From positions 1 to 36,559 of the IMG/VR virus record IMGVR_UViG_2724679237_000007: a stretch of DNA of 36,559 nt. The stretch is one strand, 5' to 3'. The notes under the pieces were generated by a model, which did no database searches, was not told where the DNA came from, and worked only from the letters and a program-made list of their open reading frames with translations. Shown piece by piece: positions 1 to 13,379 of the stretch. Numbering within the stretch: the stretch's first letter is position 1; the number at the start of each line of letters is the position of its first letter. The position numbers and the translations under genes are program-made. The stretch comes from a virus. Taxonomy: Duplodnaviria > Heunggongvirae > Uroviricota > Caudoviricetes.

Positions 1-1170
1 TTGGCACTGAGTGACACTAAACTGCGTAGTCTCCATGGCAAGCCATATTCCGGCCCGGCGGAAATCACCGACGGTGACGGACTAAGCGCGCGGGTTACCC
101 CTACCGGCACTATCTCTTTTCAGTATCGTTACCGCTGGAACGGTAAGCCAGTGCGCCTTACCGTTGGGCGTTACCCATCAACAACCCTTAAAGAAGCCCG
201 TGTGGTCGTCGGTGAGATGCGCACATTGTACACGAAGGGGGTTAACCCAAAAAATTATTTTGCCCGTAGCGACGGCGAACTGACGTTAAAAGAATGTCTG
301 GAGCAGTGGTGGGACAAGTACGTCACTGACCTGAAACCCAATACGCAGACACTGTACAAATCGGTTGTGTACAACACCATGTACACACAGTTCGAGGACG
401 CGCCTGTAGCCAATATTCCTGTTTCGGCCTGGGTACGTTTTTTTGATAAGCAAGAAAGCCTCAATAAGAAAAAGGCGCGTGTGCTTCTCCTGCAGCTGCG
501 TTCCGTCGTTAACTGGTGTATAAGCCGCCAGCTAATCCCCTCATGTGAGCTGCTTAAACTCAGTGTAAAAAATGTTGGTAAAAAACCGGATGTTGGTAGC
601 CGGGTGCTTACTTACACTGAACTGGCAAAAGTATGGCTGGCGCTGGAAAACAATAAGATTGTTTCATCCAATAAAGTGCTGCACCAACTGCTGTTGCTAT
701 GGGGTGCCCGCTTGTCTGAATTGCGTCTTGCAACTGCCAGCGAGTTCAATATGGATGACCTTATATGGACCACTCCTGGGGACCATTCAAAAATGGGGAA
801 TGTTATTCGCCGGCCGGTATTCGACCAGGTTATGCCCTATGTTGAGAGGCTGCTGAATGTTGGTAACGATGTTCTTTTCCCCGGTCAGGAGATGGATAAA
901 GCGATCGACCGCTCATCGGCGAATCTGTACATGAAAAAGCTTAGGGAGAAGATTGATATACCTGAGTGGCGAACGCACGATTTCCGGCGCTCACTTGTAA
1001 CGAATTTATCTGCGGAGGGAGTAATGCCCCACGTCACCGAAAAGATGCTGGGGCATGAGCTGGGAGGGGTAATGGCGGTGTATAACAAACATGACTGGCT
1101 GCCGGAGCAGAAAGAGGCGTACGAGCTGTATGCTGATAAGATTTTTTGGCATGTCAAACAGCTTGATTAA
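1..1170 (+). CDS. int: Tyrosine recombinase, phage integrase (P4-like family)
   Basis: 389 aa ORF. N-terminus MALSDTKLRS...GDGLSARVTPTG matches the P4-type integrase arm-binding region; C-terminal HDFRRS...VYNKHDW carries His/Arg and Tyr catalytic residues. Begins at window position 1 with TTG, so the true start and att site may lie upstream. Confidence 0.85.
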   Translation: MALSDTKLRSLHGKPYSGPAEITDGDGLSARVTPTGTISFQYRYRWNGKPVRLTVGRYPSTTLKEARVVVGEMRTLYTKGVNPKNYFARSDGELTLKECLEQWWDKYVTDLKPNTQTLYKSVVYNTMYTQFEDAPVANIPVSAWVRFFDKQESLNKKKARVLLLQLRSVVNWCISRQLIPSCELLKLSVKNVGKKPDVGSRVLTYTELAKVWLALENNKIVSSNKVLHQLLLLWGARLSELRLATASEFNMDDLIWTTPGDHSKMGNVIRRPVFDQVMPYVERLLNVGNDVLFPGQEMDKAIDRSSANLYMKKLREKIDIPEWRTHDFRRSLVTNLSAEGVMPHVTEKMLGHELGGVMAVYNKHDWLPEQKEAYELYADKIFWHVKQLD

Positions 1171-4821: not shown

Positions 4822-5583
4822 TTAAGAGGAAGCGTTAGCTATTTGAGCTTGTGTAAATTCAAAACCTGAATGCTGTAACCGTTGCACCAGTCGAGGAACA
4901 GTTTCTCGTACATGGTCGTTGAAGTTCAGATATAAAATTCCGTTAGCATCAGAAGGTTGTTCTAAATGTTGTTTCTGCAAAATAGCTACGTTACTGCGCC
5001 CTAAGGACGAAAGAAGCATACCCATCTCGAGCACAACATTCTGTCTTGCACGAGGCTGGATTTCAGCTTCACCGGCGCGCTTTGAGTACCCCATATCGTC
5101 AGGTGTGAGAAGCACAATCCCGAATCGGGTAGCTGTTTGCCCCTGACCGATTTCACGTTCCAGCTCTTCAATAATTGTGAGCCCAGTCCCGCCAGTATTC
5201 TGCAAAATGAAATGGTCTGGCAACCCGAGTTTATGGAGTATTAGCTCAAGTTGTTCCTTTGCCGCATGATCATGGCCGTGAACAATGAAAATCTTTTTTG
5301 GAATCTCAGCAGGTTGTTCAACAGATTGAGGTGCCGCTGCGGGTGGCGTTCCTAAATGGGCCATTATTGCAGATTCAACATTGGGGCGTTCTTGAGGGTT
5401 ACCCTGAAGCTGAATAGTACGGGTAGCGTAAAGGTTAACAATTACACCATTCGCTAAACGATAGCAGTCACAAGCCCCACGCTGTTCATGGTCAAAATTG
5501 GTGAACCCGCACTCCCTTAAAAAGTCAGGAAATGATTCTCTTGGGTGTGGATAGGTGATCGGCATTTCAGTTAGTTCCTGCAT
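4822..5583 (-). CDS. TIR-like (Rossmann, nucleotide-binding) domain protein with an uncharacterised N-terminal domain; candidate defense effector
   Basis: 253 aa. C-terminal half KKIFIVHGHDHAAKEQLELILHKLGL...GIVLLTPDDMGY...ARQNVVLEMGMLL matches the prokaryotic TIR-like / SLOG-type pattern (vFIvHGhd...LTPDD). N-terminal ~80 aa has no family I recognise, followed by a Pro/Ala linker. Clearly lower GC than flanking genes. Confidence 0.6.
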   Translation of the reverse strand: MQELTEMPITYPHPRESFPDFLRECGFTNFDHEQRGACDCYRLANGVIVNLYATRTIQLQGNPQERPNVESAIMAHLGTPPAAAPQSVEQPAEIPKKIFIVHGHDHAAKEQLELILHKLGLPDHFILQNTGGTGLTIIEELEREIGQGQTATRFGIVLLTPDDMGYSKRAGEAEIQPRARQNVVLEMGMLLSSLGRSNVAILQKQHLEQPSDANGILYLNFNDHVRETVPRLVQRLQHSGFEFTQAQIANASS

Positions 5584-5647: not shown

Positions 5648-7711
5648 TCAATCTTTTCTGTAGTGGTACGCCTCGAAGCCGCCAGCGTTCAGCGGGATGT
5701 CGGGCGCCCATTCGGGGTTTGTGGAGAGCAGCGCGGAAAGCGCCGTATCGTTGAAATCGTCGGTGTCCGGCGCTTCGGTGATCACCTCATCGTGTACCGT
5801 CAGCACAATGCTGTAACCGGCATCCTCGATCAGCGGCATGTTCCCGGCCAGAACGTCGCGGGCGGCCGCCTGGGTGACGTTTTCCGCGAGCTTGCCGGAG
5901 TAGGTTTTAAGCCGTTGCCATTTGCGCGAGTAGGAATTAACGCCCCGGTAGGTGATGTCGCCGTCCTCGATCGTCGGTGACGGATAACAGACCGCGCGCC
6001 CGGACGGCAACTGGATGCGCAGCCAGGCACCATCGCGCCGGACTTTCAGATAACCACAACACAGGGTTCTTTTCGGGGTTGCAATGGCGGCGCGAACGGT
6101 GCGCTCAATCTCGTGCCAGAAATCGCAGGTAGCTGGGTGCGCCCGGCGCCACAGGCGCTTTAGCGAGTCACAAGCGATAAATACGCGCTCCGACAGTCCG
6201 TAGGTTACTTTGCGTTTGACCGATTCGTCATACCAGCTTTTCGCCTCGTGGATCACCTCACGGGGGATATTCGGCAGCGCGGCGTTCGCCAGTTCGTTGA
6301 GGTCGAGGCCGTAAACAAGGGCGAAGGTCAGGAATGCCGCGACGCCTCCGCCATATCCTAACCCGAGTTCCATTACTTTGCCGATCTGACGCTGGTATTT
6401 ATCAACATCGTCCGGCGAGATATTGAAGGCACGGGCATAGGCCAGTTTATACAAGTCCGGGCCGGTGCCCTCGTCGTACTCACGGAACGCGTCCAGCTTC
6501 CACTGTTCACCCGCCAGCCACGCCAGCATTCGCCCTTCGATATTTGACAGATCGCTAACCACCAGCTTTTTGCTTTCCGGCGCCATGATGCAGCCGCGTA
6601 ACGCTGAACTGGTCAGTTCCATGATGTTATTGAACAACAGATCGGCACATCCGGCTTTCAGGGCGTCGATACCGAAGTCTATTTGCTCCTGCGGCAGCGT
6701 TGGCCGACTGAGGTTTTGCGGCTGAAACAGCCGGCCCGCCCAGCGCCCTGTTCGTGATGCCCCGCAAAATTGCAGCGTACCGCGCAGGCGCCCGTCGTGG
6801 CTGACGCCTTTTATCAGCGTTTTGTATTTGCTGGTGCTGGTCATACTGGCCTGTAATCGGATCGCCAGCAGTTCTTTGACCGCCGGGGGTAAGTCCGGGT
6901 CGGCAATGCGGCGTTCGAGCGTCGATTTCTGCATGTCCGGCAATATCACGCCGTAGGATTCGACGATGTGTTTTAGCATGGCGTCGCGCTGTGTGGCCGC
7001 CTGGACTTCGCCGCCGGTCATTGCCTGCGTGCGTTTTGCCAGGCGCTTTTGCTCCTGGTCTACCGCTTCGACGGCCGCGTGCGCGAGCTGCACATCCATG
7101 CAGGCGCCACGGTCGTTAATCCGCTGGTCGCGGTGCCAGTGCGCCAGCTCGGCTCCCTGATAGTTCCACTTTGGCAGGCGCTTATGCACTTCGCGCATGG
7201 CCTCGATATCCAGCCCGGCGTATGCAACGAACCGCCGCCACTCTTCCGGGTGCGTTTTGCTGGTGGCCCGGCGCAGTTTGCTGTTTTTCGGTCGAGGCTT
7301 GCAGAACAGCTGGATTAGCGCCGTACCCCCTTTATCCTTCGCTTTGTCCTGCGGAACGCCCAGCACTTCACACAACGCGCCTAATGCGCCGGGGAGTCCG
7401 TGCGCCAGCGCCTGCACCATAGTATCGCGCCAGCGGGTGATATCGGGTGCCAGTTCCGGCATTGCATGGCGCAGCACCGTGCGGTCGAAATGTGAATTGT
7501 GCGCCCATACTTCTACCTCCGGTTTTTTGAGCGCGAGACGCAACTCCAGAGGTATTTTTTGGGTTTCGGTTAAGTCCCACACTTGTACGGGGGCGTCGTC
7601 GAGCGCCCAGGCGAACAGCATAACCTCGGCACCCTCTGAATACGCATGGGTCCCGTTTTTTATCGGCACTTCGGAGAAAGTTTCGAGGTCGAGATAAAGG
7701 CGTTTAGACAT
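5648..7711 (-). CDS. Family A DNA polymerase with 3'-5' exonuclease (T7 gp5-like)
   Basis: YLDLETFS (Exo I), [14 protein letters not shown] (motif A), [16 protein letters not shown] (motif B), VLTVHDEV (motif C). ATG at 7709-7711 has a GAGGTGG RBS; the track ORF starts at an upstream GTG (7726). Confidence 0.85.
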
Positions 7712-8201
7712 GGGGCCACCTCGCACCGGAAATAATCATACCCACCGCACGTCGTGATATTCCGTACCTACGACCAAGTTCAGTTTGTGAGACTGAATCG
7801 CCCAGCGTTTTTATCTCCCGAGCGATGGCCTCTGTAATTTTTGCCATTCCATTCTTTTCACCTCTATTATCGGGAAAAGTCAGGCGACCATTGCGAGCGA
7901 CTCGCTTCATATTTTCCTGACGGTCAACCCATTCAAGATTGCCGACGGTATTGTTTCTCTTGTCGCCATCGAGATGGTCAACTTCTGGTTTATTTTTGGC
8001 CGTCGGAAGAAAAGCAGTTGCGACTAGTCGATGTACAAATATGTTGCGAGAGATGCCGTTATCGCATAGCTTCGCATGCAGATACCCGTCTCTGTGTTTT
8101 GACGGTTTGAGAATGTGGTGGTGGATATTTCTAACTCTTCCCAAATTGCTGACCTCGTAACGGTCTTCAAATCCGGGTGCAGGTTTCCAAATTTCGGGCA
8201 T
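7704..8201 (-). CDS. HNH homing-type endonuclease (NUMOD4/HNH_3-like)
   Basis: [15 protein letters not shown]-terminal motif and [14 protein letters not shown] core. Start chosen at ATG 8199-8201 (GAGGA RBS, 6 nt spacing) rather than the track start at 8246. Confidence 0.8.
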
Positions 8202-8392
8202 AAATAGTCCTCGCGGGTGCTTTGCGAAAAGGGATGCTCTTTGCAAAACACCCGGCGCGTGGCCGGGTGGGTGGGTGTTTACGCTGTGGCTTCTTCGTCA
8301 GAAGGGAGGCCGATCATCTCGTTGAGCGTTTCGCGGCGTATCGCGGGCGGCAGCGGGCGGGCATAGCACCGTGAGGGACGCGCTTTCCGGGA

Positions 8393-8425
8393 ATAAAAAA
8401 GCCCGGCAGTGGAGTCTGACCGGGC
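8393..8425 (-). terminator. Rho-independent terminator (minus strand)
   Basis: Minus strand reads GCCCGGTCAG-actcca-CTGCCGGGC followed by TTTTTTATTC; about 9 bp stem. Confidence 0.6.
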
Positions 8426-8451
8426 AACAACTACACACAGCAATGGATTAT

Positions 8452-8547
8452 TCAGGGGGATGCGGTTAAAGCCGCGAGGTATTCCTCGAAACTTAAGGCT
8501 TCTTCGCCTTCATCCAGGCTATCGAAGTACGCTTCGTAATCATCCAT
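8452..8547 (-). CDS. Candidate 31-aa acidic micro-protein
   Basis: MDDYEAYFDSLDEGEEALSFEEYLAALTASP; GAGGAA RBS 5 nt upstream of the ATG; the terminator at 8393..8425 follows. Below the 60 aa track cutoff. Speculative. Confidence 0.3.
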   Translation of the reverse strand: MDDYEAYFDSLDEGEEALSFEEYLAALTASP

Positions 8548-8605
8548 CGTCTTTCCTCATTCAGTTCACTTTGGCGGTGCGATGGCCGGTGCTGATCCCC
8601 GGTAT

Positions 8606-8671
8606 GGCGTTCTGCGGGATTCGAACCCGCGTTTTCCGTCGGATCGTCCTGGGTCGCTAGACGAAGAACGC
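8606..8671 (-). ncRNA. tRNA-Glu-like element lacking a canonical anticodon arm (degenerate tRNA or tRNA-like RNA)
   Basis: Minus strand: GCGTTCT-TCGTCTAGCGACCCAGGAC-GATCCGACGGAAAAC-GCGGGTTCGAATCCCGC-AGAACGC-C. Perfect T-arm (GCGGG/TTCGAAT/CCCGC), 7-bp acceptor pairing, and a D-arm near-identical to E. coli tRNA-Glu (TTCGTCTAGAGGCCCAGGAC), but only ~15 nt where the 17-nt anticodon stem-loop plus variable loop should be. Confidence 0.45.
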
Positions 8672-9070
8672 CCGGCTACATGCATTTAGCCGCGCATCAG
8701 CCTGCGCATTCACCGCACCCCAAAGGGAACTTCGCCACACTTTCGCAGTGGCCGCGCTCATGCCCTTGAGTCGTCTGTCGCTCAGTCGCCGCTAATAACC
8801 GGTGCTCGTCTGGCTTGCGAACTGCTTTACCGGCACACCATCTTCATCGTTAACCCTCACCAGCGTGCGCTGCGGTTCGTACCCGCATCTGGCTACCCTC
8901 GTCGGGTATTCGGGGCAGCATTACAATTGCTGCACTGCCTTTCGGCTGCGGTCTGACCGCTTTACTTGTGCATGGTGGTTTCCTCCTTTGGTTGATTTTT
9001 TACTGACCCGTATTGCCGGCATCCTGCCTCGCCACGGTCCCGACGCATGGTTTTAAGTCGCGCCGTTCGA

Positions 9071-9110
9071 CTTGAATTCTAAATTGATTTTTGAATTCAA
9101 AAATGAATTT
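9071..9110. promoter_or_regulatory. Operator-like palindromic repeats (TTGAATTC / GAATTCAA), putative leftward promoter region
   Basis: cTTGAATTCtaaattgatttTTGAATTCAAaaatGAATTt; same half-site family as the cI-cro intergenic palindrome. Confidence 0.4.
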
Positions 9111-9154
9111 ATAGAAGCGGTAACACCTTGTCAATCCAAAAGTGAATTATTTTT

Positions 9155-9205: not shown

Positions 9206-9883
9206 CTACTCGGGCATCCAGAGCGACGATTTAGCGATCCCGGCAACGTACTGGATATGTACCACCTGGTCTTTTTGCAGGCGAACAGGTAAGTGATTTT
9301 CGTTGACAGGCATCAAGTGATAAGCCCCGTCGCGTTCGAACAAAAAAACCTTCACCATCACTTCCCCCTGCGCAGTGACCACCAGCACTTCATCTCCGGG
9401 GGTATAGCTATGACCAGGTTCGATGATGACGTACTCACCTTCTTTAATCCGGGGCATCATCGAGTCCCCCACGCATTTTAACGCGTAGGCGTTCTCGTCT
9501 TGCGAAGGCCAGTGTATATACCCGTCCCCGCTTCCTACCGGGTATTGCATTTCGCTCCAGTAACCGCCATGCCCAAGCTGGGTATTTCCCAAAACAGGAA
9601 CTCCTCTAAACCGTAAAGTATCGGGTTTCCCCGGGACGGAATGTTGTTGCTCCCCAGTCTTCGGCATGCTGGTTTCCATCAAATCGGGGACGCTTACCCT
9701 AAAAAAATCAGCTACCTGCTTTATGAGCGGGTACTTCGGTTCTTTGTTTTCCCCTGAAAGCAGCCTGTGCATGGTGGGCTGCGGAATGCGTATCTGCTTA
9801 GCCAGTTCGGTCACGTTTGGTATGCCGCGTTTCGCCATTAAGTAATTGATATTTGAAATAAGTTTTTCAGTAGTAAAGCCCAT
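9206..9883 (-). CDS. cI: CI-like repressor (HTH + S24 LexA-like peptidase domain)
   Basis: 225 aa; N-terminal HTH (NVTELAKQIRIPQPTMHRLL) and C-terminal S24 peptidase motifs (GDSMMP Ser, downstream Lys); divergent from the Cro-like gene. Confidence 0.85.
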   Translation of the reverse strand: MGFTTEKLISNINYLMAKRGIPNVTELAKQIRIPQPTMHRLLSGENKEPKYPLIKQVADFFRVSVPDLMETSMPKTGEQQHSVPGKPDTLRFRGVPVLGNTQLGHGGYWSEMQYPVGSGDGYIHWPSQDENAYALKCVGDSMMPRIKEGEYVIIEPGHSYTPGDEVLVVTAQGEVMVKVFLFERDGAYHLMPVNENHLPVRLQKDQVVHIQYVAGIAKSSLWMPE

Positions 9884-10013: not shown

Positions 10014-10214
10014 ATGCGAACGCTGACCCCAAAAGAAATCATCGCGTCGCTGAACGACACAGGGCTTACGCAGGTAGACATTAAGAACCGGACCGGTATC
10101 AGCCAGGCTTCAATTAGCCGTATCGCGTCAGGTAAAAATAGGGACCCGCGTTTTTCGGTTGTTCGTGCGCTGGAAGCCTTGTATCAGGAAGTGACCGAAA
10201 CGAAAAAGGCGTAA
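10014..10214 (+). CDS. cro: Cro-like HTH transcriptional regulator
   Basis: 66 aa; first gene of the rightward operon opposite cI; HTH-like TGISQASISRIASGK; GAGGA RBS. Confidence 0.65.
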   Translation: MRTLTPKEIIASLNDTGLTQVDIKNRTGISQASISRIASGKNRDPRFSVVRALEALYQEVTETKKA

Positions 10215-10217
10215 CCC

Positions 10218-12521
10218 ATGGAAATACGCTATTCAACGGGGCAGTACGCCAGAGACGCCAGGCCTAAGCCGGGTATCTGTAAGAGCTTTGGGTCGTTCTA
10301 CTGGACGGTGCGTGGCCTGCGTCGGGCCATTGGCATCGAGCCAGAAGATACGCCGAACCAGATGCGTATCAAAAAGTCCCGTCTGCCCTATATCTGGCAC
10401 TCAATGCGGGATGTTGCAAACGGACGTAATGCGCTCAATGCTGGCGATCGCGATGCGCTGTTCCTCGATATGGACGGCTGCGACGAACCCACATGGCAGG
10501 CGCTGCGCAATGCGCTAACTTGCTTTTCCTGCTTCACCTACTCAACCCCCAGCCATCTGCACCCTGCCGTAAACGGCGAGCAGCGCTGGCGTATCTGCTT
10601 TGAGCTTGATCGCCCTGTTACGCCCGAAGAATACAAACGCCTTGGCCCGTCGCTGGAAAACTGGCTGATAGACTGTATCAGCCTGCTGGACGACTATGCC
10701 GTTAAGTGGGATCAGTCTGTCTATAACCCCGACCACATGGTTTACGGGCCTGACGAAAGCGCAGTGTTCGAGTGTTTCGAGGGGTCACCTGTCACCGTGG
10801 ATATTCTGCTGGCCAGCACAACGGAAATTACCTCACCTGAAAAAGCGCCGTCCGTTGACCACGATGATTTGTCGCGTGCTGTCGATCTGAACGGCATCAG
10901 TCACCAGACCTTCGACGACCTGCGCGAGGTGATGTGGCATCCGGCTGTGCTGGCTGACGCCCGTCCGAAAAGTGAGAAGCATGACGCATGGGCATCGATG
11001 GGGAATCGTCTGGCATGGTTCAAAGGTACCGACTGGGAAGATGCCGCGCGGCAACTATGGATCGACTGGTCAACCGCAGGCGGCGGCAGCGAAGAAGATA
11101 TCGCGGTAGCTGAAACGCGCTGGGATGAGAATAAGCTGAAAGCAGACCGTACCGGTTACCAGGCTATTTTTGCCCATGCGCAGAAATCTGGTGTCGCTAA
11201 CCCGGCGGTTGACCGTCTGCGTGGTTCTGTTGCCAGCGTGGACGATTTCGACGATTTGACAAATACCGACATAGCCGAGCCTGCGCCGTTACCGGCTTTT
11301 CGTAGAGATAATAAGGGAGACATCGAAGCGATCCTTGATAATGTTGTGCTGGCTCTGATGCGTCCGGATTTTACGGGTGTAGCCATACGCTACGACATAT
11401 TCAGGGATGCGCTTATGCTGGCACCGGCGGAAACTGATGGCTGGCGTGCTTTCGGGGATGAGGATTATAGCGAGCTTCGGATACTGCTTTCTCGTCGCAG
11501 TTTTAAAGAAGTTAGTAAAGAGTTGATGCGTGATGCGGTGTTTACGGTAGCAAAACGGCAGCCGTTCGACTCGGCGACAACCTGGCTGAACGGGCTGGAG
11601 TGGGACGGCGTGCCGCGCATCGAATCTTTCTACCATACGCACTTTGGTACCGCTGATACGACGTACACCCGGGCGGTGTCCCTGTACATGTGGACGGCGC
11701 TGGCGGGCAGGGTGCTGGAGTCCGGCGTTAAAGCTGATATGGTGCCGATCCTCGTCGGCGCTCAGGGACTGCGTAAATCAGCTGGGATTGCAGCTCTTTC
11801 GCCAGATCCGGAATTCTTTGCCGATATTTCGTTTGCTGATAAAGATGACGACCTCGCGCGCAAGATGCGAGGCTGTTTAGTCGCGGAGATAAGTGAGTTG
11901 CGTGGCCTGAACACAAAAGATCTTGAGTCAATAAAGGCATGGGTAACGCGAACCCACGATAAATGGGTTCCGAAATTTAAGGAGTTTACGACCATCTTTG
12001 CTCGTCGTGGTATTCCTTTGGGGTCCTCTAACGAAGATGAATTCCTCGCGGATAAGACCGGTAACCGCCGCTGGTTGCCTGTAGACGTCATCAACATGGT
12101 TGATACAGATGCTATTAAGCGCGATTTACCGCTGCTGTGGGCGGAGGCCCGCGAGACGTTTAAGCGCCTCGGCGGCATCCAGTTCCGCGATGCTGAGCGC
12201 CTCGGCGCAACTGTCCACGAGCAGTACACCATTAAGGACGCCTGGCTCGAAACGGTCGAGAAATGGCTCGATACCCCTGACCTGATGACTAACGACATTC
12301 CGCGAAATTGCGAATTTTTACGCGCAAGCGACGTTTTACGGGAGGCGATCGGCCTTGACCCGCGGAATATCGGAAAGCGTGAAGAAATGCGAATTAGCAA
12401 TGTTTTGCAAAATTGCGGTTATAAGCGCGAAACACGACGTGTTGAAGGCAAGTTAATGAAGGTTTGGATAGCAGCGTTACCACCTGTTACCACCTGTAAG
12501 GGCAAGGTGGTAACAAATTAA
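10218..12521 (+). CDS. DNA primase (primase-polymerase-like N-terminus with VirE/P4-type P-loop C-terminal domain)
   Basis: 767 aa; C-terminal ILVGAQGLRKSAG (Walker A) and VirE-like region; lies between cro and the iteron array. Confidence 0.7.
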   Translation: MEIRYSTGQYARDARPKPGICKSFGSFYWTVRGLRRAIGIEPEDTPNQMRIKKSRLPYIWHSMRDVANGRNALNAGDRDALFLDMDGCDEPTWQALRNALTCFSCFTYSTPSHLHPAVNGEQRWRICFELDRPVTPEEYKRLGPSLENWLIDCISLLDDYAVKWDQSVYNPDHMVYGPDESAVFECFEGSPVTVDILLASTTEITSPEKAPSVDHDDLSRAVDLNGISHQTFDDLREVMWHPAVLADARPKSEKHDAWASMGNRLAWFKGTDWEDAARQLWIDWSTAGGGSEEDIAVAETRWDENKLKADRTGYQAIFAHAQKSGVANPAVDRLRGSVASVDDFDDLTNTDIAEPAPLPAFRRDNKGDIEAILDNVVLALMRPDFTGVAIRYDIFRDALMLAPAETDGWRAFGDEDYSELRILLSRRSFKEVSKELMRDAVFTVAKRQPFDSATTWLNGLEWDGVPRIESFYHTHFGTADTTYTRAVSLYMWTALAGRVLESGVKADMVPILVGAQGLRKSAGIAALSPDPEFFADISFADKDDDLARKMRGCLVAEISELRGLNTKDLESIKAWVTRTHDKWVPKFKEFTTIFARRGIPLGSSNEDEFLADKTGNRRWLPVDVINMVDTDAIKRDLPLLWAEARETFKRLGGIQFRDAERLGATVHEQYTIKDAWLETVEKWLDTPDLMTNDIPRNCEFLRASDVLREAIGLDPRNIGKREEMRISNVLQNCGYKRETRRVEGKLMKVWIAALPPVTTCKGKVVTN

Positions 12522-12956: not shown

Positions 12957-13379
12957 ATGCGCAGAGATATGCAACTTGTTCTGGAGCGGTGGGGGCGGTG
13001 GGCTGCGAGCGAGGAATACTGTTCAATGGTTGACTGGCCCTCGATGTCGGTGACACCTCAACGTGTACCGTTCAGCGGAAAGCCCGGCTGCACCGACGAG
13101 GACGGCGCGGCAATTGACACCTGCATCGCGCATATGAGTATGGTTTGTCCGCATGACGACCTGCTGATCCTTGGCTTACGTTTCATAGGCGGTTTATCAA
13201 CGCGTTCAATCGCCGAGGCAATGCAGTGCAGCCACCTTAGTGTAAGAACGTCCCTGAGGGCATCTGAGGCGTTTTTATCGGGGGCTCTGACCCTGCAGGG
13301 GATCAGACTGGATATGGACTACGAAGTTGCATTACCTGAAAACGTTGTGTGCGCACAAAAACATGTGTTATGGTTGTAG
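12957..13379 (+). CDS. Late-gene antiterminator (Q-like)
   Basis: 140 aa starting MRRDMQLVLERWGRWAA, resembling the conserved N-terminus of one Q antiterminator family; sits directly upstream of lysis and virion genes, followed by a terminator. Confidence 0.55.
   Translation: MRRDMQLVLERWGRWAASEEYCSMVDWPSMSVTPQRVPFSGKPGCTDEDGAAIDTCIAHMSMVCPHDDLLILGLRFIGGLSTRSIAEAMQCSHLSVRTSLRASEAFLSGALTLQGIRLDMDYEVALPENVVCAQKHVLWL

Follow-up and report, generated by a model that had tools for sequence, protein, structure and literature searches.

The tRNA-Glu-like element on the minus strand of the window (the whole 36,559-nt stretch of phage DNA that was analyzed) lies within the untranslated early-left (pL) operon leader of a lambda-like prophage and is not a free-standing gene. 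It is best read as a tRNA-Glu-derived, non-decoding, cis-acting tRNA-shaped cap nested in a leader hairpin, and is probably an RNase P-type processing module. The full reading, in which RNase P would cut this module where it caps a hairpin of the lambda N-leader type, is given a probability of about 0.45. The original prediction had described a tRNA-Glu-like element with acceptor, D and T arms but no anticodon arm, a discriminator C, and ATA instead of CCA at its 3′ end, and each of these features is present on the minus strand. It had also suggested a decayed phage tRNA gene or a functional tRNA-like RNA; the analysis finds no stand-alone gene, decayed or otherwise, but an element nested in the apex of a conserved, covarying leader hairpin. 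The coordinates are collected in Table 1.

Table 1. Features of the early-left leader and its surroundings, numbered from the first letter of the window.
Feature	Position	Strand	Description
Integrase	1-1170		Pfam scan of window ORFs
Terminator hairpin and U-run	8395-8444	minus	Preceded by RprA-like 3′ segment; ends promoter-proximal transcription unit
First post-leader ORF	8452-8547	minus	31 aa, acidic (MDDYEAYFDSLDEGEEALSFEEYLAALTASP); SD about 20 nt after hairpin
Outer helix, 3′ strand	8569-8584	minus	CATCGCACC-G-CCAAAG; one bulged purine
Hairpin Z	8586-8602	minus	CCGG-GGATCAGCA-CCGG; conserved scaffold beside 3′ strand, T-arm-like position
Anticodon-less tRNA-Glu-like element	8606-8671	minus	66 bases; from sequence and fold
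Discriminator C of element	8606	minus	3′ neighbor ATA, not CCA
Acceptor stem of element	8665-8671 with 8607-8613	minus	7/7 Watson-Crick pairs
T arm of element	8614-8630	minus	5 bp and loop TTCGAAT; canonical
Linker/stub of element	8631-8645	minus	About 14-15 nt replacing anticodon arm
D arm of element	8646-8662	minus	Sequence match to tRNA-Glu
Hairpin B	8674-8691	minus	GGCTA-AATGCATG-TAGCC; part of lineage-specific cassette
Hairpin A	8692-8707	minus	GCGCA-GGCTGA-TGCGC; conserved scaffold beside 5′ strand, D-arm-like position
Outer helix, 5′ strand	8711-8725	minus	CTTTGG-GGTGCGGTG; pairs with 8569-8584 in MFE fold
Structured core RNA	8734-8961	minus	Conserved, about 250 nt; independent module upstream of hairpin
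Shine-Dalgarno and mini-ORF	8962-8988	minus	AAGGAGG, then ATG CAC AAG TAA; 5′ edge of core
putL-like antitermination RNA site	9001-9072	minus	HK022-type; 81% identity to HK022 and HK75
pL-like sigma-70 promoter	9106-9134	minus	TTGACA-17-TAAATT; downstream of cI-like repressor gene
cI-like repressor	9209-9883	minus	S24 and HTH domains

Read from 8671 down to 8606, the minus strand gives GCGTTCT TC GTCTAGCGACCCAGGAC GATCCGACGGAAAAC GCGGGTTCGAATCCCGC AGAACGC C and then ATA. The acceptor stem (7 bp) and the T stem (5 bp), the latter closed by its T loop, form a coaxial unit in which the pairing is perfect. Between position 26 and the T stem the element falls 7 nt short of tRNA-Glu; no anticodon stem-loop can be formed there, the predicted fold being a 3-bp stub with a triloop, and the element lacks the four-arm cloverleaf with its 5-bp anticodon stem and 7-nt loop. 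The D loop reads AGCGACCCA where tRNA-Glu has AGAGGCCCA and carries A in place of G19, a detail missed by the original prediction. G19 is universally conserved and pairs with C56 at the tRNA elbow; its exchange weakens the elbow and counts against the reading as a processing module. Of the conserved D-loop residues G18-G19 the element keeps G18 alone, and it has no encoded 3′ CCA such as enterobacterial tRNA genes carry, its 3′ end being C-ATA. The combination of T-loop consensus, 5-bp Watson-Crick T stem and 7-bp Watson-Crick acceptor stem occurs once in the window and in none of 300 shuffles, a count from which the identity of the D arm was left out.

Of the tRNA finders proposed in the original prediction, ARAGORN called no tRNA by default or when relaxed to 80% thresholds, and nothing meaningful appeared across thresholds of 95-70%. 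Rfam at gathering score gave no match at all, whether to the element or elsewhere in the window. Under relaxed settings (E ≤ 10, local) the tRNA-Sec model aligned to the acceptor and T arm with a score of 19.4 bits, its cut-off being 47 bits; the other relaxed matches in this area were partial ones to the chloroplast-leader and RprA families. An identity as tmRNA was rejected, ARAGORN reporting no tmRNA and Rfam no tmRNA match in the window. It is very improbable that the feature belongs to the plus strand, where the reverse-complemented T arm and the TTTTCC after it would terminate antisense transcription. A terminator scan does match at 8613-8631 (+), but the T run comprises only four bases, the scan count is at background (4 found, 2.8 expected), the local plus-strand ORFs are without family support, and the acceptor stem and D arm would be left unexplained. 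Protein coding on the plus strand was rejected as well: there were no Pfam matches, and the substitution and indel pattern of the relatives is unlike that of coding sequence.

The D arm together with its two 5′ neighbors is identical to enterobacterial tRNA-Glu (E. coli rrnB spacer, gltT) at 19 of 21 positions, the D arm itself differing at two. T-arm positions 51-63, meaning the T loop with the pairs next to it, match at 13/13, and the T loop is identical to that of E. coli tRNA-Glu. U8, A14, G15/C48 and the U13-G22 pair are all kept, as are G18 and T54/A58. By comparison, the element has lost the anticodon arm and the CCA, residue 19 is A, the discriminator is C and not G, and six stem pairs are exchanged, four of the seven in the acceptor and two of the five in the T stem. 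All of the exchanges are compensated, and the three retained arms have 16/16 stem pairs intact. As read from the letters of an element that exists as two identical copies in one lineage, this compensated divergence indicates that pairing was long under selection and did not decay at random.

That a phage tRNA-Glu gene functioned at this locus and decayed recently is decidedly unlikely. The D arm and T loop are tRNA-Glu-like, and some phages carry tRNA genes; however, the U2-A71 and C4-G69 pairs of tRNA-Glu are missing from the acceptor stem, the element lies inside a base-paired leader hairpin without a promoter or terminator of its own, and no intact tRNA occupies the position in more than 160 related loci. 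Instead of the intact tRNA that the original prediction had proposed to look for at the same position in related prophages, these possess a hypervariable slot with unrelated cassettes, some of which are tRNA- or 16S-like. Its view that the element is not an att-core remnant holds, since both halves of the tRNA are present and the element is found in the immunity/early region, approximately 7.5 kb from the integrase gene.

The minus strand presents, in order, a pL-like promoter, an HK022-type putL site, a structured RNA of approximately 250 nt, the element hairpin and a 31-codon ORF, and we infer that the element is transcribed from pL. The counterpart of the putL site in HK022 and HK75 is annotated "putL site" in the phage records. 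The Shine-Dalgarno-like motif at the edge of the core is found in 94 of 108 distinct relatives, and an ATG with a stop within three codons in 91/108. A word taken from the core occurs in at least 119 IMG/VR contigs, and RNAalifold reveals strong compensatory changes in several of its helices; no Rfam family matches this RNA, and it is unannotated in phage and E. coli records. Beyond the hairpin, the Shine-Dalgarno sequence and ATG of the 31-aa ORF lie at 8545-8558; this ORF is called as a gene in one further locus (L174), and another (L017) possesses a related ORF. The resemblance of the terminator region to RprA is weak (cmscan 32.8 bits, E = 0.06, under the gathering score), and a link to rprA was discarded, the E. 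coli BLAST having given no connection.

The element occupies the hypervariable apex of a 15-20-bp hairpin (8569-8725). The MFE fold of the stretch from 8735 to 8560 (z = -4.1) consists of the outer helix, hairpins A, B and Z, and the nested cloverleaf minus its anticodon arm. Among eight distinct relatives the outer helix is 100% paired and shows five double-compensated pairs. Hairpin A has two compensatory pairs among the relatives, while the sequence of hairpin Z is kept in eight relatives, its pair counts being weakened by loop-length misalignment; the hairpin B word, searched in IMG/VR, gave no match.

On its sequence, the base of this hairpin (CUUUGG-GGUG.../...CACC-R-CCAAAG) is homologous to that of the lambda N-leader hairpin. 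The lambda motif is GGCUUUGG-GGUGUGUG...CACACACC-A-CCAAAGC, in which the bulged purine (A in CACACACC-A-CCAAAG) matches the single bulge (G) in the window; the window hairpin, supported by covariation, has the helix base and the bulge of the lambda type. Its operon position is the same too, with the nut/put site ahead of it and the first pL gene's Shine-Dalgarno sequence directly behind it, and the folding z-scores are alike and strongly negative. The two differ at the apex, which in lambda is an unrelated sequence of approximately 90 nt without a canonical T loop. Furthermore, the window phage has putL and not nutL plus N, its downstream gene is the 31-aa ORF and not N, and the structured core of about 250 nt with its mini-ORF is inserted upstream. 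To our knowledge no role has been assigned to the apex of the lambda hairpin, though the leader is much studied. RNase III presumably cuts the lambda hairpin between CUUUGG and GGUG on the 5′ side and between CC and AAAG of CACC-R-CCAAAG on the 3′ side, which fits a 2-nt 3′ overhang. Action of this enzyme on the leader is reported for lambda, and the window hairpin, like it in sequence and fold, would be a putative substrate. According to PMC9032294, RNase III activates N synthesis, and PMC5725501 describes the stretch from nutL to N as highly structured and under N autorepression; the works cited there are Kameyama 1991 and Wilson 2002. A literature search revealed no described tRNA-like or structured RNA like these in lambdoid leaders.

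The hairpin apex in lambda relatives is a cassette site for stable-RNA look-alikes. Its length across 40 distinct lambda-type hairpins ranges from 41 to 198 nt. Nine of the 40 (12 loci) carry a copy of 16S rRNA positions 246-282 (37 nt, helix 11), and in one relative (L035) the entire apex is a degenerate 71-nt tRNA. A separate subfamily (19 distinct sequences, 11 compensated pairs) possesses a covarying tRNA-like cloverleaf, the canonical T arm of which is stacked on the outer helix; of 5,426 complete E. coli genomes, 175 carry it without annotation, and it can even be seen ahead of the lambda N protein. One of the E. coli prophage leaders of this type lies at NZ_CP018976.1:1409617-1409759. 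These T-arm-capped relatives give a faint Rfam match (11 bits) to the T-arm/acceptor/CCA part of beta-proteobacterial tmRNA. The R-CCA that follows the outer helix was considered as a true CCA end and rejected, because in relatives it varies to CUA or UCA with the pairing kept, from which we surmise that the helix, and not a CCA end, is the constraint. Given the other tRNA- and rRNA-like pieces at the same spot, it appears that tRNA shapes are reused, so far without annotation, by the early-gene leaders of phages, and the independent, covarying tRNA-shaped caps within the hairpin family argue for selection of the shape at this position.

The element itself is known from one prophage lineage only, with a second, 100% identical copy that was located via contigs encoding an identical cI protein. 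Assemblies of the lysogen are GCA_001514885.1 and GCA_039862125.1. Searches of phage records with blastn returned generic T-arm matches alone and no homologue of the element; a gapped D-arm/T-arm pattern had no match in IMG/VR, and neither exact nor gapped patterns had any in GTDB species genomes. The JGI metagenomes yielded one truncated, unrelated tRNA-Glu (L124) and no homologue. When 1.74 Mb of related loci were scanned with a descriptor of short tRNA-like modules, L035 was, besides the element's own copies and L124, the only convincing match; a third (L033) could be due to chance.

It is possible, if doubtful, that the element is a neutral passenger, that is, a piece of a tRNA-Glu gene, taken from a phage or from the rrn spacer of a host, which entered a tolerant hypervariable loop of the leader hairpin by illegitimate recombination, was deprived of the anticodon arm, and does nothing except leave the hairpin undisturbed. 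Its being a singleton whose other copy is identical is congruent with this, as are the very different sequences of 41-198 nt accepted by the slot, the mutated G19, the absent CCA, and a short CCGG direct repeat flanking the insert. Capture from rrn operons is rendered plausible by the 16S rRNA piece in relatives, by the position of the rrnB 16S gene ahead of the spacer tRNA-Glu, and by the identity of the phage nutL boxA and the rrn leader over 13-14 nt. Set against these points, the arm pairs have all stayed intact although six differ from tRNA-Glu, every one of them compensated, and the sole arm to be lost, the anticodon arm, is dispensable for RNase P and the tRNA end-processing enzymes. 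The independent recurrence of tRNA-shaped caps, with covariation, in the hairpin family also speaks against a passenger.

The preferred reading, that of a processing module, corresponds to the "processing signal" of the original prediction and is the most plausible guess at a function. The module would fold independently and cap the hairpin, presenting the T-stem-loop and acceptor shape measured by RNase P, and would on account of that shape be excised from the leader. RNase P would make the 5′ cut, which the possible G(-1):C73 pair probably shifts one position upstream, and tRNA 3′-end enzymes would process the 3′ side. Such a cut would add a growth-rate-independent endonucleolytic entry close to where RNase III would act, with a small tRNA-shaped RNA as by-product; we infer cleavage by both RNase III and RNase P, as well as any effect on downstream expression. 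RNase P is reported to fit the T-stem-loop and acceptor and to cleave RNAs presenting such a shape, the D loop being dispensable (PMC4919913). Of the features of a bacterial type-A RNase P substrate, the element has neither the 3′ RCCA, which pairs with the P15 loop of the enzyme, nor the unpaired N(-1)/N73, its end being C-AUA and G(-1) being able to pair with C73. RNase P can cut substrates that lack CCA, albeit less efficiently. The missing RCCA and the G(-1):C73 pair would be expected to reduce or shift cleavage by an E. coli-type enzyme. Moreover, a cut at the apex alone leaves the strands of the 15-20-bp helix together, so that the regulatory benefit is not obvious.

An action in trans is unlikely. 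Here the excised RNA, of approximately 66-70 nt, would serve as a decoy or sponge, the targets of which would be an enzyme that binds tRNA or a defence nuclease directed at tRNA, or it would be completed with CCA and even charged. It would be made from pL in the first seconds of infection; the acceptor/T-arm shape is present, R-CCA adjoins the helix in other family members, and G(-1) can pair with C73, a G(-1):C73 pair being the main identity element for HisRS. Yet the element lacks an anticodon loop, the usual target of anticodon nucleases, as well as CCA and G19; it is a singleton, no partner gene was identified, and the CUA and UCA variants of the relatives, by keeping the pairing, point to a constraint on the helix and not on CCA. 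The decoy and primer readings of the original prediction gained no support, and there is no reverse transcriptase among the window ORFs scanned against Pfam.

A wider form of this idea, to which we attach a low likelihood, would make lambda-type pL leaders a production line for tRNA-shaped RNAs that act in trans. By cutting at the conserved box, RNase III would free an apical domain that starts with G and ends in ...R-CC, so that a single A is missing from CCA, and the CCA-adding enzyme could complete the ends of RNAs made within seconds of infection. The T-arm-capped relatives and L035 would release a complete tRNA mimic, and the piece released by the window prophage would carry a second, nested tRNA-Glu-like module. 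In trans these RNAs might be charged, sponge tRNA enzymes, or blunt tRNA-directed defences, and the 16S helix-11 copies would follow the same display principle on the ribosomal side.

Should RNase P or further tRNA enzymes be recruited by the tRNA shape, as in the preferred reading, the lysis-lysogeny switch would have an unrecognized processing input beside RNase III, and phages would make tRNA-shaped RNAs from their first transcript. Should the element be a passenger only, it documents the capture of rrn-operon-type sequence into phage leaders. Phage leaders and rrn operons share boxA and long processing stems. None of the look-alikes at the apex (anticodon-less tRNA-Glu, degenerate tRNA, T-arm cloverleaf, 16S helix 11) is annotated.

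Several known RNAs resemble the element in part. The P4 CI and P1/P7 C4 immunity RNAs are small RNAs cut by RNase P from a phage early/immunity leader; they differ in having no canonical T loop or D arm and in acting by antisense pairing, and membership in C4/CI was rejected, the Rfam C4 family having no match in the window. YrlA, a bacterial Y RNA, is likewise non-coding and mimics a T arm and D arm without an anticodon. Unlike the element, it is circularly permuted, with the RNA ends on the "anticodon" side, and is linked to rsr/rtcBA; no gene of that type stood out in the Pfam scan of the window ORFs, nor did Rfam find a Y RNA, and this identity was discarded. The tRNA-like domain of tmRNA and the 3′ tRNA-like structures of plant viruses share the acceptor/T-arm stack, a D-arm analogue and the lack of an anticodon arm, whereas the element is without CCA, tag reading frame or pseudoknots and is internal to its transcript instead of terminal. 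The mascRNA of MALAT1 and its MEN-beta equivalent also fold like tRNAs that lack a working anticodon arm and also sit within a longer non-coding transcript (PMC4919913, PMC8457004). These are eukaryotic, lie at the 3′ end of lncRNAs and have demonstrated cleavage, whereas the element is of bacterial/phage origin, sits at a hairpin apex and has putative cleavage; the proposed role they share is the recruitment of RNase P, with the small tRNA-like RNA as a by-product.

The window is a lambdoid prophage, the structural genes of which show approximately 73% identity to those of the epsilon15/SPN1S group. The order of promoter, putL-like site, and ORF around the tRNA-Glu-like element places it in the early-left operon, within the untranslated leader. 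It had been predicted not to be a usual att-core remnant; this is borne out, since 7.5 kb separate it from the integrase gene, and an att origin was rejected. The same operon carries an ORF (4822–5583, minus strand) with a TIR domain of the CAP12/Pycsar-effector type (E = 3e-31), a possible candidate for defense or exclusion by the prophage; an HNH/NUMOD4 endonuclease (7707–8246), a C5 methylase, an SNF2 helicase, and a DNA polymerase of family A are encoded nearby. Where the first pL transcription unit ends (8391–8500, minus strand; AUUGCUGUGUGUAGU...GCCCGG...CCGGGCUUUUUU), its sequence can be aligned to the sRNA RprA, over the terminator and 3′ half of the latter, at 32.8 bits (E = 0.06), short of the gathering score of 70, and BLAST of this region against E. 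coli revealed no link to rprA; the resemblance may be due to chance or mark an RprA-like 3′ sRNA carried by the phage.

Coordinates of features in the window and of capped leader hairpins in other records
Feature	Record or locus	Position	Strand	Remark
Integrase	window	1–1170		
Q antiterminator	window	12957–13379		
VapE-type replication gene	window	10218–12521	+	
cro-like gene	window	10014–10211	+	
LexA/S24-type repressor	window	9883–9209	-	
pL-like promoter	window	9134→9106	-	downstream of repressor, same strand
HK022/HK75 putL-like site	window	9072→9001	-	81% identity
Strong Shine-Dalgarno and three-codon mini-ORF	window	8988→8962	-	
Conserved non-coding block	window	8961→8734	-	~230 nt
Region containing the element	window	8725→8569	-	
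Shine-Dalgarno and acidic 31-codon ORF	window	8547→8452	-	
Terminator	window	about 8444→8395	-	
16S helix-11 copies, leader-hairpin apex	L041, L051, L059, L062, L064, L065, L071, L076, L079, L095, L025, L060			
T-arm-capped leader	L129	about 7895–8040		
T-arm-capped leaders	L115; L130–L172			
T-arm-capped leader, E. coli	NZ_CP018976.1	1409617–1409759		

Read on the minus strand from 8671 to 8606, the element is GCGTTCT-TC-GTCTAGCGACCCAGGAC-GATCCGACGGAAAAC-GCGGGTTCGAATCCCGC-AGAACGC-C, followed by ATA. Watson-Crick pairing is perfect in both the 7-bp acceptor and the 5-bp T stem, and the T loop, TTCGAAT, is canonical; this composite occurs once in the window and in none of 300 shuffles. Alignment to the spacer tRNA-Glu of E. 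coli rrnB reveals 19/21 matches across the D arm and its neighbors and 13/13 at T-arm positions 51–63, the interval between the two arms being 7 nt shorter in the element. Folded in isolation, it forms acceptor, D, and T helices and a 3-bp stub in place of the anticodon arm. The original prediction had thus described the stem pairings, T loop, D-arm likeness, missing anticodon arm, and ATA end correctly. While U8, A14, G15/C48, G18, and T54/A58 are retained, an A occupies the position of G19, the tRNA-elbow partner of C56. Lacking an anticodon arm and CCA, and with G19 altered, the element is not a decoding tRNA. Of the relaxed searches proposed earlier, ARAGORN made no call even with 80% thresholds; Rfam, which gave nothing at gathering score, yielded at a relaxed threshold only a partial, 19.4-bit tRNA-Sec alignment skipping the middle of the element.

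The minimum free energy fold of 8735→8560 (−81.4 kcal/mol, z = −4.1) nests the module, alongside hairpins A (GCGCA-GGCUGA-UGCGC), B (GGCUA...UAGCC), and Z (CCGG-GGAUCAGCA-CCGG), within an outer helix in which CUUUGG-GGUGCGGUG pairs with CAUCGCACC-G-CCAAAG, extended by more pairs. The outer helix and hairpins A and Z are common to eight distinct relatives, with wholly different sequence between them. In these, pairing in the outer helix is 100% and five of its pairs are altered on both sides, as are two pairs of hairpin A; the covariation score of the scaffold was matched by 0/500 shuffles, and in slid controls pairing fell to about 35–42%. A CCGG direct repeat flanks the element and its ATA (8672–8675 and 8599–8602, minus strand; TAGCCGG/element-ATA/CCGGGG), which hints weakly at capture or insertion mediated by microhomology; in relatives AAGCCGG lies directly 5′ of hairpin Z.

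Judged by its sequence, the outer helix is that of the N-leader hairpin of lambda. The lambda leader reads ...GGCUUUGG-GGUGUGUG...(about 90 nt)...CACACACC-A-CCAAAGCUAACUGACAGGAG...AUG(N), likewise has the bulged purine, and folds with z = −4.2. The RNase III cuts in lambda, taken here to be near +88 and +197 in the transcript from pL, presumably map to CUUUGG/GGUG and CACC-A-CC/AAAG, consistent with a 2-nt 3′ overhang. Position, sequence, bulge, and covariation all assign the base of the window hairpin to this family, with RNase III cleavage putative. In lambda, nutL is found ~200 bp upstream of N, and through the highly structured RNA between them N autorepresses its translation (PMC5725501); N synthesis is activated by RNase III (PMC9032294, citing Kameyama 1991).

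Among relatives retrieved with the core word (at least 119 IMG/VR contigs), 40 distinct sequences have a lambda-type helix, and their apical segments, 41–198 nt long, are mostly without mutual relatedness. The apex of the leader hairpin is a cassette slot, often filled by look-alikes of stable RNAs. Nine distinct sequences (12 loci) carry there a 37-nt copy, 89–97% identical, of 16S rRNA 246–282 (helix 11, E. coli numbering), the differences from E. coli including one compensated A-U to U-A pair. In relative L035 (about 11355–11425) the entire apex is a 71-nt degenerate tRNA, called “tRNA-Ser(tga)” by ARAGORN, with a 7-bp acceptor, canonical T arm, shortened anticodon region, and ACCA. Across 1.74 Mb of related loci, no further short tRNA-like module of this kind was found in a leader hairpin. 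Searching by pattern for a canonical T loop shortly upstream of CACCRCCAAAG returned 47 viral contigs, about 30 of which are leader hairpins with a cloverleaf-like apex. This apex comprises a D-like hairpin, a central arm that is long and variable, an additional 5-bp/7-nt hairpin, and a T arm (GCUGG-UUCGACU-CCAGC) that stacks on the outer helix and is followed by A-CCA. When 16 sequences drawn from the 19 distinct ones were aligned, compensatory change was seen at 11 pairs, T stem included. Reading the R-CCA 3′ of the outer helix as a CCA end was rejected: its CUA and UCA variants preserve pairing, which is better explained by helix conservation. This capped type also occurs immediately 5′ of the lambda N protein gene, without the conserved core block, and is present, annotated in none, in 175 of 5,426 complete E. 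coli genomes; its sole Rfam match, of 11 bits, was to a tmRNA model, in the T-arm/acceptor/CCA portion. From the covarying cloverleaf and the L035 tRNA it follows that tRNA-shaped caps are a recurrent feature of the leader hairpin under structural selection, the window element being a nested variant.

Between the put/nut site and the hairpin lies a core RNA of ~230 nt (8734–8988, minus strand; relatives L001–L123), which possesses several helices rich in compensatory changes, one of them formed by the long-range pairing CCCGAGUC...GACUCAAGGG. This RNA is found in at least 119 IMG/VR contigs from many lambdoid phages, among them Stx2c phages, mEp213, mEp237, Hafnia yong1, and Klebsiella RothC/D, and has no Rfam family or annotation. 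At its 5′ edge a strong Shine-Dalgarno and ATG are followed by a stop no more than three codons on; this mini-ORF is present in 91 of 108 distinct core sequences, and an SD-like motif in 94, an arrangement that by analogy resembles a start-stop or bar-type minigene. The core is independent of the tRNA-like caps.

No homologues of the element were found in phage records, IMG/VR, or GTDB species genomes, and JGI metagenomes gave one match, an unrelated truncated tRNA-Glu with its anticodon retained (L124, soil metagenome Ga0210399_10002073, 11633–11700, minus strand). That gene keeps the anticodon arm intact and lacks its variable loop and one T-stem strand, the 5′ one, lies in an unrelated context, and drew no ARAGORN call. 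Comparison of contigs with an identical repressor (L173 and L174; GCA_039862125.1 and GCA_001514885.1) reveals a 100% identical module spanning cI, pL, putL, leader RNA, small ORF, and terminator, directly after which, at about 4530 in the locus, unrelated early genes mark a clean mosaic junction. The element is a singleton, and its sole second copy being identical, conservation of its arms is not measurable. Relative to enterobacterial tRNA-Glu, four acceptor and two T-stem pairs differ, all compensated, with the T loop unchanged; such a signature of an RNA kept for pairing, be it as today's module or as a tRNA that an earlier phage or host possessed, is indirect evidence suggesting past selection. 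Both recognizable cassettes have counterparts in rrnB, namely 16S helix 11 and the spacer tRNA-Glu after 16S, and the phage nutL boxA shares a 13–14-nt identity with the rrn leader; capture from rrn operons would be a reasonable origin.

In the reading proposed as most likely, the element would serve as a cis-acting processing and folding cap. Transcribed from pL as part of the leader, it would fold autonomously and display a T-stem-loop and acceptor stack; RNase P measures and cleaves RNAs of that shape, the D loop being dispensable (PMC4919913). Cleavage by RNase P on the 5′ side, and by tRNA 3′-end enzymes after C8606, would open an additional endonucleolytic entry beside the RNase III box, leaving a small tRNA-like by-product. 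The tRNA-His-like pairing of G(−1) to C73 would probably put the 5′ cut at −1/−2. Against the processing cap stand the absence of RCCA, the weakened tRNA elbow, and the fact that an apical cut alone leaves the helix strands joined. The main rival is a neutral passenger in a tolerant loop. Of the functions originally suggested, a processing signal is favored, as a putative role. Action in trans as a mimic or decoy, although possible, lacks support.

Alone, the element is a one-off; what it exposes in a classic regulatory RNA is a pattern that is widespread and lacks annotation, and the literature searchable here yielded no account of lambdoid N-type leaders capped by tRNA-like or rRNA-like pieces. 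It belongs to neither the tRNA genes, the tmRNAs, the Y RNAs, nor the C4/CI RNAs. By analogy, it would work most like the tRNA-like processing signals of the mascRNA/MALAT1 kind, a class to which it belongs in part: it has the shape but no RCCA, and its cleavage is putative.
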